Assembly (NCBI RefSeq): GCF_050920415.1
Contig: NZ_CP169309.1
Length of the DNA stretch: 64,000 nucleotides
From: Escherichia coli
Lineage (GTDB): Bacteria > Pseudomonadota > Gammaproteobacteria > Enterobacterales > Enterobacteriaceae
Reading direction: 5' to 3' (one strand)
Positions 9,685-60,029 of this stretch are shown piece by piece. The notes under the pieces are model-generated. The model saw nothing but the letters and a program-made list of their open reading frames with translations, was not told the origin of the DNA and did no database searches. The number at the start of each line of letters is the position of its first letter. Position 1 is the first letter of the stretch. Both the position numbers and the translations under genes were made by a program.

Positions 9685-9792
9685 TCAAGAAAGGCACCTG
9701 GGGCTGAAACGGTTAATGGCGAGATAATTTGCGGAAAGGACAGATGATGAAAAGAAAAATGCCGGATGACACGAGGGTCATCCGGCATTACA

Positions 9793-11667
9793 TCAGGAAA
9801 CCAGCAGCTGGTTCATACGACGAATAAACAGGTTCGGATCTTCCAGCGTACCGCGCTCTGCCAGCAGCGCCTGATCCAGCAGCAGTTCTACCCACTCGCT
9901 GAACTTCGCTTCATCTTCAGTATCTGCCGCACGTTTCACCAGTACGTGATCCGGGTTCAGTTCGAAGATGTATTTCACTTCTGGTACTTTCTGGCCCGCC
10001 GCAGCGAACAGTTTCGCCATCTGGGTGCTCATTTCGTCCGCGTCGGTCGAAACGATCGCTGGCGTATCGGTCAGACGGTGAGTCAGACGGACATCTTTCA
10101 CGCGCTCGCCGAGCAGGGCTTTCACACGGTCGATGAACGGAGTCAGTGCTTTCTCCGCTTCTTTCGCGCTCTCATCAACTTCGTCAGCCAGTTTTTCCAG
10201 CGACTCGTCAACTTTAGACACAGACTGGAACGGTTTACCGTCGAACTCAGTCAGATAGTTCATCATCCACTCATCAATGCGGTCGGAAAGCAGCAGAACT
10301 TCGATGCCTTTCTTACGCAGCAGCTCCAGGTGCGGGCTGCTCTTCGCTGCCGCGTAGCTGTCTGCGGTGATGTAGTAGATTTTCTCCTGCCCTTCTTTCA
10401 TGCGGGAAACGTAGTCTTCCAGAGACACGGTCTGCGCAGAAGAGTCGGTATGTGTAGAAGCAAACCGCAGCAGTTTGGCGATCGCTTCCTGGTTAGCGAA
10501 ATCTTCCGCCGGACCTTCTTTCAGCACCAGGCCAAACTGTTGCCAGAAGGTCTGATATTTTTCCGCGTCGTCTTTCGCCAGTTTTTCCAGCATTTGCAGC
10601 ACACGCTTAGTCAGCGCATTGCGCAGGTTGCGCGTTACTGTGCTGTCCTGGAGGATTTCACGGGAAACATTCAGCGGCAGATCGCTGGAGTCAATCAGAC
10701 CACGCACGAAGCGCAGATAGTTCGGCATGAACTGTTCTGCGTCGTCCATGATGAACACACGCTGGACGTACAGTTTCAGGCCGTGCTTATGATCGCGGTT
10801 CCACATATCCCACGGTGCCTGCGACGGGATGTACAGCAGGCTGGTGTACTCCTGCTTACCTTCGACACGGTTGTGGCTCCAGGTCAGCGGATCGTTAAAG
10901 TCGTGAGCGATGTGTTTGTAGAACTCTTTGTACTCTTCATCGGTAATTTCCGACTTGTTACGGGTCCACAGCGCCTGCGCTTTGTTGATTTTCTCCCAGG
11001 AGATAACGGTTTCGCCGTCTTTCTCTTCGCGTTTTTCGATCTCTACCGGCAGCGCGATATGGTCGGAGTATTTGCTGATGATGGAACGCACACGCCAGTC
11101 ATCGAGGAACTCGTCTTCGCCTTCACGCAGATGCAGGGTGATTTCAGTACCACGATCTTCTTTGGTGATGTCGGCAACGGTATATTCACCTTCGCCAGCC
11201 GATTCCCAGAAGACGCCGTTTTCTGGTTTTTCGCCTGCCGCGCGAGTACGCACGGTCACTTTGTCGGCCACGATAAACGCAGAGTAGAAACCAACACCAA
11301 ACTGACCGATCAGTTGGCTGTCTTTCGCCTGGTCAGAACCCAGGGATTCGAGGAATGATTTGGTGCCGGATTTAGCGATAGTCCCCAGATGGTCAATCAC
11401 TTCGTCGCGGGTCATCCCCACGCCGTTATCGGAGATGGTCAGCGTACGCTTGTCTTTATCGAAAGAGACACGAACGCGCAGTTCGCCATCACCTTCGTAC
11501 AGGTCCGGGTTAGAGAGCGCGCGGAAACGCAGCTTGTCCGCCGCATCGGAGGCGTTAGAGATAAGCTCACGCAGGAAGATTTCTTTATTGGAATAGAGAG
11601 AATGGATCATCAGGTGCAGAAGTTGTTTCACTTCTGACTGAAAACCACGAGTTTCTTGTCCTTTCAT
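9793..11667 (-). CDS. htpG: Hsp90-family chaperone HtpG (624 aa)
   Basis: Full-length ORF with GHKL ATPase N-terminus; recognised as E. coli HtpG. Confidence 0.95.
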
Positions 11668-11718
11668 GTAGGTCTACCTCAATAATGCCATTTTAAGGTT
11701 AAAAACAGGATGAGGGAG

Positions 11719-11747
11719 AGATGGGGACAAGGGAGAATAATTTCAAG
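11719..11747 (-). promoter_or_regulatory. Sigma32 heat-shock promoter of htpG: -35 CTTGAAA, 14-nt spacer, -10 CCCCATCT
   Basis: Minus-strand reading CTTGAAATTATTCTCCCTTGTCCCCATCT matches the sigma32 consensus (CTTGAAA ... CCCCATnT). Confidence 0.75.
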
Positions 11748-11776
11748 CGAGAGCAGGTGATCCTGCTCTCGTTTGC

Positions 11777-12381
11777 TTAAAAACGAATCTTATGACGCCC
11801 GGCAAGGGAGTGTGACAGCGTGGTGCCATCGACCATTTCCAGCTCGCCGCCAACCGGTACGCCATGAGCGATTCGGCTGGCTTCCACGTCATATTGCGCG
11901 CAAAGCTCGGCAATGTAGTTAGCGGTAGCTTCACCTTCAACCGTGGGGTTGGTGGCGAGGATCACTTCAGTGATTTTTTCCTCTGCCAGACGCTGTTCCA
12001 GACGATCAAGGCCGATATCATCCGGACCGATGCCGTCCAGCGGTGACAGATGTCCCATCAACACAAAATAACGACCTGAAAACTGCCCCGTCTGCTCAAT
12101 GGCGTAAATGTCCGCCGGACTCTCCACCACGCAGATTTGACCGTTTTCCTGACGACGCGGATTCGAACAGATGTTACAGACTTCCTGTTCGGTGAAGGTG
12201 CGGCAATCGGCGCAGTGGCCGATTTCCGACATCGCCCGGGTGAGCGCCTGCGCCAGACGCATCCCGCCGCTACGATCGCGCTGAAGCAGCGTGAACGCCA
12301 TACGCTGCGCCGACTTCGGGCCAACGCCCGGCAGACAGCGCAGTGCTTCCATAAGCTGTGTTAACAGCGGGCTGGTTTGCA

Positions 12382-12382
<1 letters not shown>
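11777..12382 (-). CDS. recR: Recombination protein RecR (201 aa)
   Basis: Cys4 zinc finger (CxxC...CxxC) and Toprim region; dnaX-ybaB-recR order. Confidence 0.92.
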
Positions 12383-12726
<344 letters not shown>

Positions 12727-12763: not shown

Positions 12764-14695
12764 TCAAATGGGGCGGATACTTTCTTCATCCAGCTCCGCA
12801 TCGAAGAACCGACGCAGGGTCTGAATATTATTATCCGCAATAATGGACTCGCGCGCCTGCGCAAGTTTTTCTTCGTATATCGCCTGACGCCATTCCAGCG
12901 GCGTACGCACCGCGGGATTATCATCTTCAACGATAGTCAGTTCAACCGTTGAACCTTTTAACGTGCTCAACGCTTCAGCCAGTTTTTGCTGTGCGCCGCT
13001 GTTATTCAGATGACGCTGAGAGGAGCGCAAATGCAGACACACCGTGTTGCCGTTCTCCTCTTTCCAGGCATTTAACGCCACCTGTTCGACCAGTTTTGGT
13101 AGCGAAAGTTGACTCACCTGAGCCGCCCACGGGTCGCGCTCAATGGCTTCTGCCGCCAGCTTCGCCGCCAGTTCCGGCGTTTTTTCATGTTCCAGCGCTT
13201 TTTTTAGCGCCTTCGGCGTGGCGACCACTTCTTTTTGCTGCATCACTGGAGTGGTAGCCTTCCAGCGATACGCTTCTTTTTTGGCTGGTGCTTTTTCCAG
13301 CGCCGATGGCACCGGACGCGCCTGAACGCGATCGGTGACCGAAGCCAGTCTTTCCAGCGCAGCGTTATTCACCGGCCGCGCGCGGGTAGCGGCTGCCGGT
13401 TCACTCTTTTTTGCTTTGGTTGCTCCCTGTGCGCGCTGCAGTTGTTGGCGCGCCGCCAGCACCTGGCTGGTGGTTTCTGAGAGCGGTACAGTCGGTGCCT
13501 GCTGCGGAGCTGATTGCGGTTGCGGCGGCACCTGGGTTGGCGTCATTACTGCCGTTGGCGCGACGGGCGCAAAAGACTGGCGTGGCACTTCTGGCTCAGG
13601 CAGCGGCATACGCGGATGAAACGCCAGTGCGCGCAACAGCGTCATCTCAACGCCCATGCGGCGGTCCGGCGCATACGGTAATTCTTTGCGACCAATCAAC
13701 AGCGTTTGATAGTAAAGCTGAATATCCGTCGGCGGTATGGTGCGCGCCAGTTCACGCATCCGCAGCTCGATGGCGGCCATGTCGTTGCCCAGCGCAGCAG
13801 GGGAAAGTTGCACCATTGCAATGCGGTGCAACAGGCCGAGCATTTCTACCAGCAACGCTTCCCACTCAATACCACGAGCGGCGGCTTCATTAATCAGCGA
13901 CATTACACGCTCGCCGTTGGCTTCAACCATCGCTTCAACCAGCGACAGCGCCTGATCGTCGTCAAGCGTACCCAGCATCGCACTGACCGCCTGAGTTGAA
14001 ACCTGGCCGTCACCGCTGGCAATCGCCTGGTCGGTCAGACTTAAGGCATCTCGCAGGCTGCCTTCAGCGGCGCGCGCCAGCAATTGCAGCGCCCGCGGCT
14101 CGTGAGCGATATGTTCTTCGTTGAGGATGTGCTCAAGCTGATGGCGAATTTGCTCGACATCCAGCGCTTTGAGATGAAATTGCAGACAGCGTGACAAAAT
14201 CGTCACCGGCAATTTCTGCGGATCGGTCGTCGCCAGCAGAAACTTGACGTGCTCCGGCGGTTCTTCAAGGGTTTTTAACAGTGCGTTAAAGCTGTGGCGC
14301 GACAGCATATGCACTTCGTCGATCAGATAAACTTTAAAACGACCACGCGCTGGCGCGTACTGGACGTTATCCAGCAGGTCGCGGGTATCTTCGACTTTGG
14401 TACGCGAGGCGGCGTCGATTTCAATCAGATCGACAAAGCGCCCCTGCTCAATTTCACGACAGTTATCGCACACGCCGCACGGCGTCGCGGTAATGCCGGT
14501 TTCGCAGTTTAGCCCCTTCGCCAGCAGTCGGGCGATAGAGGTTTTTCCGACGCCACGGGTGCCGGAAAAAAGATAAGCATGATGAATACGCCCTAACGAC
14601 AAGCCGTTCGCCAGTGCGGTCAGCACATGTTCCTGGCCGACGACGTCAGCAAAGGTTTGTGGGCGCCATTTTCGGGCTAAGACCTGATAACTCAT
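12764..14695 (-). CDS. dnaX: DNA polymerase III subunits tau/gamma (643 aa tau)
   Basis: AAA+ Walker A (GTRGVGKTS) and Zn-binding cysteines; internal A-AAA-AAG frameshift site. Confidence 0.95.
   Translation of the reverse strand: MSYQVLARKWRPQTFADVVGQEHVLTALANGLSLGRIHHAYLFSGTRGVGKTSIARLLAKGLNCETGITATPCGVCDNCREIEQGRFVDLIEIDAASRTKVEDTRDLLDNVQYAPARGRFKVYLIDEVHMLSRHSFNALLKTLEEPPEHVKFLLATTDPQKLPVTILSRCLQFHLKALDVEQIRHQLEHILNEEHIAHEPRALQLLARAAEGSLRDALSLTDQAIASGDGQVSTQAVSAMLGTLDDDQALSLVEAMVEANGERVMSLINEAAARGIEWEALLVEMLGLLHRIAMVQLSPAALGNDMAAIELRMRELARTIPPTDIQLYYQTLLIGRKELPYAPDRRMGVEMTLLRALAFHPRMPLPEPEVPRQSFAPVAPTAVMTPTQVPPQPQSAPQQAPTVPLSETTSQVLAARQQLQRAQGATKAKKSEPAAATRARPVNNAALERLASVTDRVQARPVPSALEKAPAKKEAYRWKATTPVMQQKEVVATPKALKKALEHEKTPELAAKLAAEAIERDPWAAQVSQLSLPKLVEQVALNAWKEENGNTVCLHLRSSQRHLNNSGAQQKLAEALSTLKGSTVELTIVEDDNPAVRTPLEWRQAIYEEKLAQARESIIADNNIQTLRRFFDAELDEESIRPI
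13406..13412 (-). other. Programmed -1 ribosomal frameshift heptamer A-AAA-AAG in dnaX (codons 428-430); the -1 frame reads GAG then UGA, producing gamma
   Basis: Heptamer located in frame by counting codons from the dnaX start; GC-rich hairpin immediately 3' at about 13372-13400. Confidence 0.85.
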
Positions 14696-25550: not shown

Positions 25551-25575
25551 AAGGCCGCGCAAGCGGCCTTTTTTA
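25551..25575 (+). terminator. Rho-independent terminator after acrB (AAGGCCGC-GCAA-GCGGCCTT then TTTTT)
   Basis: Perfect 8-bp stem, GNRA-like loop and T-run. Confidence 0.8.
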
Positions 25576-38405: not shown

Positions 38406-38557
38406 AACCCTTCCACAGAGAATTTTTTTCTCTTTTAATTCTATTTTAAAGGTGAAATCGCGACAATTTATTCTGTGCGGTTTAAACATCACGGCACAAA
38501 ATGACAAATTCAACGCAAAAAAAACCGGGCAATTGCCCGGTGCTGGAAGGGATCTCG

Positions 38558-44885: not shown

Positions 44886-45076
44886 GGTGTAACAACACTC
44901 CGCTGTAGATGACTGTGTACCTCACGCAACGTATCGATGCGCGCAAAGGCCTATTGTGACAAGAAACGGGGGCAATTGTCAGCCCACAAGACGCAGAAAG
45001 TCACCGAATACAAATAAAAAAGGCACATCAGTAGATGCGCCCTTGAACTTCGTCACATCCCCACTGGGGACAACGC

Positions 45077-47995: not shown

Positions 47996-48024
47996 ATATG
48001 GGGATGTTTCCCCCACATTCAACG
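47996..48024 (-). promoter_or_regulatory. Sigma32 heat-shock promoter of lon: -35 GTTGAATG, 14-nt spacer, -10 CCCCATAT
   Basis: Minus strand reads GGCGTTGAATGTGGGGGAAACATCCCCATATACTGACG. Confidence 0.75.
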
Positions 48025-48037
48025 CCGAGAATAGAGG

Positions 48038-48071
48038 AAAAATTAAAGGGGAGATAAAATCCCCCCTTTTT
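48038..48071 (-). terminator. Hairpin terminator between clpX and lon
   Basis: GGGGAGA-TAAAA-TCCCCCC stem with T-rich flanks on both strands. Confidence 0.6.
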
Positions 48072-50124: not shown

Positions 50125-50303
50125 TTCCGTCTCCTGGATAAAATTGAAAAAACCTGCTGTACCGATTGTAACCTTATGGACGGATTATCAGCTAGTCCCT
50201 GTGTTATGGGTACGGCATCACCATATTTCAAGCATAACAATCTTTTGTTGTTACGCTAACACCGAAAGAGGCTTTTCGCACGGTTCCATGCAAAATTCAT
50301 GAC

Positions 50304-50336
50304 AAAAAAAGGCCCACCACCTGGCGGTGATGGGCC
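50304..50336 (-). terminator. Rho-independent terminator after tig
   Basis: GGCCCA...TGGGCC stem followed on the minus strand by a T-run (plus-strand A-run 50304-50310). Confidence 0.75.
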
Positions 50337-50369
50337 TTTGTGCGAATTTAGCGCGTTATGCTGCGAAAA

Positions 50370-56148: not shown

Positions 56149-59085
<2,937 letters not shown>

Positions 59086-59987: not shown

Positions 59988-60001
59988 CACAACCTCTCTA
60001 T

Positions 60002-60029
60002 AAAAAAGGTGCTACGGCACCTTTTTTAT
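60002..60029 (+). terminator. Rho-independent terminator of the cyo operon (AAGGTGC-TACG-GCACCTT then T-run)
   Basis: Perfect 7-bp stem, 4-nt loop, T-run, 15 bp after the cyoE stop. Confidence 0.8.

Follow-up and report, generated by a model that had tools for sequence, protein, structure and literature searches.

A Conserved Terminal Stem-Loop of the recR mRNA Adjoins the Sigma32 Promoter of htpG in Escherichia coli

Introduction

The dependence of the htpG promoter on sigma32 and its induction by heat or misfolded protein are established in the literature. In E. coli, it is said to have been recognized as a sigma32 (RpoH) heat-shock promoter by Cowing et al. in 1985 and by Nonaka et al. in 2006. 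The sigma32 consensus is quoted as CTTGAAA and CCCCAT separated by 13 or 15 nt (PMC3168786). Passages of Ceroni et al. describe both the genomic and the cloned htpG promoters as induced by protein-expression burden.

The end of the upstream gene, recR, can be compared with three known arrangements. A canonical intrinsic terminator has a stable GC-rich stem-loop shortly past the last gene, a U-tract, i.e., approximately five or more U in 8 nt, and an RNA 3' end approximately 7-9 nt past the stem within that tract. A different class was described among Rho-dependent E. coli transcripts by Dar and Sorek in 2018 (PMC6061677). These transcripts have a precise end after a stable stem-loop without a U-rich tail, C exceeds G downstream, and the tails are trimmed by PNPase and RNase II. 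The third arrangement is the clpX-lon junction, where an operon-terminal hairpin is followed by a close co-directional heat-shock promoter.

The literature search found no discussion of a recR/htpG terminator, and the TERMITe supplements had no entry for recR or htpG. The mentions of recR/htpG in a circuit paper of the Voigt lab and the passages of Ceroni et al. contained nothing bearing on this boundary.

Genes and Promoter

Coordinates refer to the window, i.e., the whole 64,000-nt stretch of DNA that was analysed, and all features of the junction lie on its minus strand. The site belongs to Escherichia coli, and a 301-nt query across the recR/htpG junction matched 5424 of 5426 complete E. 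coli genomes. The matched junction is annotated as recR and htpG in RefSeq (BLAST matches, MG1655). Positions were converted to MG1655 as NC_000913.3 = 495120 + (11667 - window). Over the 190 nt aligned with MG1655, two differences were found, i.e., a synonymous-looking C/T change in recR and one intergenic base. The latter, at 11713(-), is T here and A in K-12 (CTCCCTCAT vs CTCCCACAT) and adjoins the htpG start at 11712. The A of K-12 looks derived, because T is present at this position in E. albertii, another E. coli and most other genera.

By the ORF list, dnaX was located at 12764-14695(-), ybaB at 12382-12726(-) and recR, the last gene of the dnaX-ybaB-recR unit, at 11777-12382(-), the last in accordance with the RefSeq annotation. 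The TAA stop of recR occupies 11779-11777. The htpG gene, encoding 624 aa, was found at 9793-11667(-) by the ORF list and annotation. Its 5' UTR was assigned to 11668-11711(-) from the sequence and the mapped start, with the Shine-Dalgarno GAGG at 11680-11677. A block of this UTR that includes the Shine-Dalgarno, AAAUGGCAUU(A/G)UUGAGGU at 11676-11694(-), is nearly invariant across Enterobacteriaceae. Judging from the letters, an upstream ACCUU might pair with GAGGU of the UTR, which makes it a candidate for translational control or thermosensing.

The sigma32 -35 element CTTGAAA (11741-11747, minus strand) and the -10 element CCCCATCT (11719-11726, minus strand), separated by a 14-nt spacer at 11740-11727, are exact consensus matches, and the heat-shock promoter that the earlier note had placed at 11719-11747 was thus borne out. 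The pattern CTTGAAA-N13-15-CCCCATNT was matched exactly at 11719-11747(-), and nowhere else in the 64 kb, where 0.00 matches were expected. All 32 aligned species have an unchanged -35 element, and a sigma32-like -35/-10 pair with at most 2 mismatches per element was found upstream of htpG in 57/57 scanned intergenic regions (up to 400 nt). The transcription start mapped by SMRT-Cappable-seq (Yan et al. 2018) is at 11712(-), i.e., NC_000913.3 495075. This is the same promoter as in textbooks, with consensus -35 and -10, the 14-nt spacer, a start 7 nt past the -10 and conservation across Enterobacterales. The detail added here is that its -35 also supplies the nucleotides directly following the terminal stem-loop of the upstream mRNA, and may contribute to the bottom pairs of that stem. 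The consensus promoter and terminator scan, which models sigma70 and requires a U-tract, called neither this promoter nor the hairpin.

A second sigma32-like match, with 2 mismatches (CTTGAAATATGGTGATGCCGTACCCATAA), was found at 50204-50232(-), upstream of clpP. The clpPX start of SMRT-Cappable-seq, 456642 (window 50145), lies approximately 59 nt downstream of this match.

Stem-Loop Downstream of recR

The 3'-terminal stem-loop of the recR mRNA, CGAGAGCAGG-AUCA-CCUGCUCUCG, was located at 11748-11771(-) by folding, inverted repeat search and covariation. Its stem of 10 bp closes a 4-nt loop (11761-11758), and the structure begins 5 nt past the recR stop. The 9-bp core, GAGAGCAGG-AUCA-CCUGCUCUC, occupies 11770-11749, and C11771:G11748 forms the tenth pair. 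The hairpin that the earlier note had reported at 11748-11770 is therefore present, but with one side off by one, since the structure including the tenth pair spans 11771-11748. The recR stop reported at 11777 and the elements on the minus strand all lay at, or within 1 nt of, the positions first given for them. The last stem base is 11748 and the -35 begins at 11747, i.e., the gap is 0 nt.

The 31-nt core folds at -18.9 kcal/mol (z = -6.7, 0/200 shuffles) and the 51-nt segment at -22.6 kcal/mol (z = -5.7). Non-overlapping hairpins with arms of at least 10 nt and a short loop number only four in 64 kb, the recR hairpin included. The inverted-repeat search extended the arms to 14 nt (11775-11762 with 11757-11744; 93% complementarity), which brings the bottom of the stem inside the -35 element.

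The RNAfold MFE of the 51 nt also gave a possible extended lower stem at 11741-11782(-), in which UUUUAAGC (11782-11775, spanning the recR stop) pairs with GCUUGAAA (11748-11741, including the -35) with a 4-nt bulge. This extension was rejected as a conserved feature. In the alignment, pairs C8-G42 and A9-U41 were kept, but the third pair was often broken, the extension was absent where the C-terminal codons of recR differ, and the comparative support was weak.

On the antisense strand, 11744-11775(+) forms a perfect 14-bp stem of -24.4 kcal/mol, in which the A-C mismatch of the sense strand becomes G-U. This stem also lacks a U-tract (tail CUUAAAAACG), and the counts of G-U and A-C suggest no antisense role. 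A search of 11000-12500 against Rfam 15 with permissive thresholds returned only a chance-level hit to sau-63 (18.1 bits vs a gathering score of 100, E = 2.1).

Transcript Ends and Termination

The steady-state 3' end of the recR mRNA, ...CUCUCGCUU-3', is at 11745(-), i.e., NC_000913.3 495042. This end was recorded as 'primary' for recR in the Term-seq data of Adams et al. 2021 in eLife (PMC7815308), in MG1655 grown in LB to OD 0.4, with an average of 1798 reads. The signal is modest, and it was over the Term-seq threshold in one of three growth conditions (PMC7815308). When placed on the sequence, 495042 is the second U of ...CUCUCGCUU, a base of the -35 that lies 3 nt beyond the 10-bp stem. 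The htpG start at 11712, 7 nt past the -10, is 33 nt past this end, with coordinates checked on the MG1655 sequence. The expectation of the earlier note that the upstream transcript ends beside the heat-shock promoter agrees with the end at 11745 and with the separate transcription units, except that the end falls inside the -35 hexamer and not before the promoter.

A further 3' end of Adams et al., the 'internal' 494017, corresponds to 12770(-), four nt before the dnaX stop and immediately ahead of ybaB, and may mark a processing site or a pause inside the operon.

The recR hairpin was compared with terminators of the same window by a d'Aubenton-Carafa-type score computed with modern energies. 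Its T-score is 1.08 and its d is -25.6, whereas bona fide terminators in the window have T-scores of 2.9-4.4 and positive d. The canonical intrinsic terminator of htpG, a 13-bp stem followed by UUUCUUUU at 9758-9789(-), has d = +12.3 and a T-score of 3.52, and its position matches the published transcript end 497033 (PMC6131387) and the annotated terminator. Five other terminator-like hairpins in the window have d from +4.7 to +34.1. The U-tract hairpins of highest d are at 38524-38541(-), 50308-50339(-), 25551-25570(+), 45019-45044(-) and 58427-58446(-). At 60000-60029, a 13-nt perfect palindrome lies between A- and T-runs and looks bidirectional.

The recR hairpin shares with the canonical terminators of htpG (9758-9789) and clpX (48048-48066) a GC-rich stem, a short loop, a position past the last stop of the operon and an adjoining RNA end, and a stable stem-loop just downstream of the last gene is indeed present. 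It differs from them in that the 8 nt past the stem, CUUGAAAU, contain only 3 U and do not form a U-tract, the T-score is 1.08 compared with approximately 3-4, and the RNA ends at +3 and not 7-9 nt past the stem in a U-run. The absence of a U-tract and the end at +3 indicate that it is not a canonical intrinsic terminator. With the low d and no call in the consensus scan, the simple reading of the hairpin as an intrinsic terminator became doubtful. An end 3 nt from the stem is too close to be the release point, which argues for trimming from a longer precursor.

Downstream of the stem, a C-rich, G-poor tract at 11698-11747(-) has 18 C and 3 G in 50 nt and is a candidate rut-like region. The excess of C over G, i.e., 15, is reached by only 0.12% of 50-nt windows on either strand. 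The sigma32 consensus (CCCCAT) itself dictates some of this C-richness. Because 35 of these 50 nt (11747-11713) precede the htpG start, read-through RNA alone contains this part.

The recR end thus resembles the class of Dar and Sorek in its stable stem-loop, precise 3' end, absence of a U-rich tail and excess of C over G downstream. Rho dependence and exonuclease trimming were established for that class, whereas for the recR end they are presumed from the likeness. Another difference is that the C-rich tract between recR and htpG is also a working promoter and is mostly absent from the mRNA of the downstream gene. The Rho-region table of Adams et al. has no entry at 4948xx-4953xx, where the strong htpG promoter would mask their ratio of upstream to downstream reads.

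The reading that we prefer, and whose chances of being right or wrong we judge to be evenly balanced, is that the apt/dnaX/ybaB-recR mRNAs carry this hairpin as a conserved 3'-terminal stem-loop, with Rho-type release downstream and trimming back to the stem. RNA polymerase would probably not be released at the hairpin by the canonical intrinsic mechanism. It may run on into the promoter region, whose RNA copy is untranslated, C-rich and G-poor, and we infer that Rho would release it there. PNPase or RNase II would then trim the tail to the stem-loop, which would protect the recR message. The net effect would be that read-through yields no full-length htpG mRNA, and the htpG message proper would be made without the hairpin and without most of the C-rich tract. 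Read-through RNA would also carry the htpG ribosome-binding site approximately 70 nt downstream, and its translation could hinder Rho.

An alternative that we consider possible, although rather doubtful, is a non-canonical intrinsic terminator, i.e., the model of the earlier note. The hairpin would release polymerase a few nt on, the -35 and T-rich spacer (CUUGAAAUUAUU) would serve as a degenerate U-tract, and 4-6 nt would be nibbled from the released end. The strong 10-bp GC-rich stem with a tetraloop just past the stop of the last gene, the mapped 3' end beside it and the absence of any listed read-through unit are consistent with this. If the extended lower stem forms, the tail reads UUAUUCU and contains 5 U in 8 nt. 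U-tracts in several relatives whose hairpin is not packed against the promoter further indicate that intrinsic termination may be ancestral. The extended stem, however, is not conserved, and with 3 U in 8 nt, no call in the consensus scan, d = -25.6 and T = 1.08, the hairpin itself scores poorly, while the end at +3 is an implausible release site. In addition, because the hairpin starts 5 nt past the stop, a terminating ribosome would be expected from known ribosome footprints to cover its 5' arm. A weak intrinsic terminator followed by trimming of 4-6 nt would nevertheless give the same steady-state end, and it is a serious rival to Rho-type release.

The transcription units of SMRT-Cappable-seq reported by Yan et al. 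2018 (PMC6131387) are apt-dnaX-ybaB-recR, dnaX-ybaB-recR, two of ybaB-recR, htpG and htpG-adk. Read-through from recR into htpG, which the earlier note had named beforehand as evidence against its model, is not listed among them, i.e., no unit in PMC6131387 joins the two genes, although the upstream units are scarce and this observation therefore has limited power. The same data do contain htpG-adk read-through over a canonical terminator, so the silence at recR-htpG is meaningful despite the rarer upstream units. The locus behaves as two separate transcription units.

These units bear on the view that no real termination takes place, i.e., that recR and htpG are meaningfully co-transcribed and the hairpin is a processing or stabilising end of read-through RNA that has been cut and trimmed. 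Such a view accords with a hairpin without a U-tract, with a 3' end that abuts the stem as trimmed ends do, and with a modest Term-seq signal listed in a single condition. We consider it improbable, since four units end with recR and none includes htpG in data that detect htpG-adk, and htpG has its own strong conserved promoter with a single mapped start.

A roadblock by promoter-bound polymerase was rejected on geometric grounds. An open complex covering approximately -55 to +20 would be expected to stall the oncoming polymerase near -70 and not at -33.

Conservation of the Junction

A RecR-based scan with one genome per species returned 80 loci. htpG was downstream of recR in 59 of them, and the misses were 19 Vibrionaceae, Rosenbergiella epipactidis and one truncated locus. 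In Vibrionaceae (Vibrio, Photobacterium, Grimontia; L063, L065-L081), htpG was not within 1.5 kb downstream of recR in 19/19 loci, so the adjacency appears to be specific to Enterobacterales in this sample. In two species of Budvicia (L051:2107-3144, L056:2107-3226), recR and htpG are separated by an insertion of approximately 1.0-1.1 kb.

In 34 species of Enterobacteriaceae and Erwiniaceae, the recR-htpG intergenic region is 98-146 nt and the hairpin starts 5-7 nt past the stop in nearly all. The distance from the hairpin end to CTTGAAA is 0 nt in most of them and within 2 nt either way in the others, with an overlap of 1-2 nt in some. The stem sequences diverge widely, e.g., CGGAGGCCGC/GCGGCUUCCG, CAGAAGCCCUG/CAGGGUUUCUG and GCUGAUGUUCU/GGAACAUCAGC. 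When 16 species were folded singly, all 16 showed the hairpin at the same position, with -12.3 to -22.9 kcal/mol and z = -3.2 to -7.7.

RNAalifold found no structure on the 32-species MAFFT alignment, in which the Erwiniaceae stems are offset by one column from those of Enterobacteriaceae. The problem disappeared once each family was treated separately and the structure was specified. Covariation was counted on plain MAFFT alignments split by family. In Enterobacteriaceae, 90.4% of cells were paired and 9/10 pairs had changed on both sides, with 0/500 shuffles as good and slid controls at 44-55%. In Erwiniaceae, 92.3% of cells were paired and 7/9 pairs had changed on both sides, with 0/500 shuffles for both cells paired and covariation score and slid controls at 24-49%. 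G-U outnumbered A-C by 27 to 8 among the stem cells of the Enterobacteriaceae alignment. This excess points to a structure on the sense-strand RNA, i.e., the recR message, and makes a protein operator, cruciform or antisense RNA less likely. The comparison of sequences thus shows that the hairpin is a sense-strand RNA structure maintained by compensatory change. Since the hairpin lies upstream of the htpG start, it is present only in transcripts coming from upstream.

The arrangement is different in more distant Enterobacterales. In Serratia, Yersinia, Dickeya, Pectobacterium, Rahnella, Photorhabdus, Hafnia, Edwardsiella, Morganella and others, 29-110 nt separate the hairpin from the promoter. 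The strongest hairpin of these unpacked relatives is usually near the recR stop, within approximately 20 nt in the clearer cases. The exceptions are Photorhabdus, with a hairpin approximately 85-95 nt downstream of the stop, and Yersinia, for which the stem search was uninformative. A proper U-tract follows the equivalent hairpin in several unpacked relatives, e.g., loci L054, L058, L060 and L040. As distant Enterobacterales are unpacked, the flush arrangement looks like a derived state of the Enterobacteriaceae-Erwiniaceae lineage. The zero-nt packing would have arisen in the common ancestor of Enterobacteriaceae and Erwiniaceae and been kept since.

In Yersinia, the recR-htpG spacer (L053:2135-2225, L055, L062) contains a long GC-clamped inverted repeat, GGGCGAUUG ... 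AAUCGCCCC. The AT-rich core within this repeat, TTATTGATTATCATATGAATAAT, resembles a Fur-type box.

The distance from the stop codon to the -35 is 28-31 nt in 33/34 species, although the stems turned over completely, and 40-88 nt separate the -10 from the ATG in the packed clade. Such fixed spacing, and a position where the alpha subunit or other upstream contacts of promoter-bound polymerase occur, are what would be seen if the palindrome acted as DNA, i.e., as the operator of a dimeric regulator, an upstream promoter element or a cruciform modulating the sigma32 promoter from -36 to -59. We regard this as very improbable. The pairing is conserved but the sequence is not, the loop varies from 3 to 8 nt, G-U, which is a mismatch on the other strand and in a cruciform, exceeds A-C as counted above, and the relatives keep the hairpin near the recR stop and not near the promoter. 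That the palindrome is a functionless chance feature has a negligible probability, since the general frequency of short inverted repeats is all that favours it and it is refuted by covariation across the two families, besides the folding z-score, the shuffles and the mapped RNA end at the hairpin base.

Promoter Packing and the Upstream End

The C content of the promoter region is 32-46% in the packed clade compared with 16-38% in most unpacked relatives. The preferred reading can be carried further. The promoter DNA may double as RNA, in that the transcribed -35, spacer and -10 would be a Rho loading site against read-through, the stem-loop would stabilise the trimmed recR message, and in Enterobacteriaceae and Erwiniaceae the zero spacing, the lost U-tract and the higher C content would be co-adapted. 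Because the htpG mRNA starts past 35 of the 50 nt of the tract, Rho would remove read-through RNA selectively and spare RNA initiated at the promoter. We hold this extension to be plausible but unlikely on the whole. Packing and C-richness represent a single phylogenetic event and are therefore weak evidence of co-adaptation.

At the clpX-lon junction, 47996-48066(-), a hairpin GGGGGGAU-UUUA-UCUCCCC (48066-48048) is followed by a U-tract at 48047-48038. The lon heat-shock promoter, TTGAAT ... CCCCATAT, lies within 48024-47996(-). This junction resembles recR-htpG in having an operon-terminal hairpin and then a close co-directional heat-shock promoter. It differs in that it has a U-tract and approximately 25 nt from the hairpin (48066-48048) to the -35 (48022), whereas at htpG the distance is 0 nt and no U-tract is present. 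The unpacked relatives and clpX-lon keep the boundary, so packing is not required for it. A putative insulation of htpG, which the earlier note had ascribed to the tight packing, is plausible.

Significance

The boundary between recR and htpG is real and ordinary. The promoter is a textbook one and public tables list both the 3' end and the start site, and the junction is unusual only in its tight packing. A terminal stem-loop beside the next promoter is ordinary in a compact bacterial genome. What is added here is the covariation proof of a sense-strand RNA element, its failure in the intrinsic-terminator test, the match to the Rho-type class of protected ends and the conserved zero-nt spacing.

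The value of these results is mostly in annotation, as they fix the boundary of the dnaX-ybaB-recR units against htpG. They mark the recR-proximal hairpin as a selected RNA structure and not a regulator binding site, and give a clear case in which a mapped 3' end with a conserved stem-loop is not by default an intrinsic terminator. Cloned htpG promoter fragments, e.g., the ones that serve as burden sensors, may include the hairpin or lack it, which could alter their shielding from upstream transcription. If the promoter does double as a site where Rho loads, it would be a neat instance of codes overlapping within a compact intergenic region, and not a new principle.
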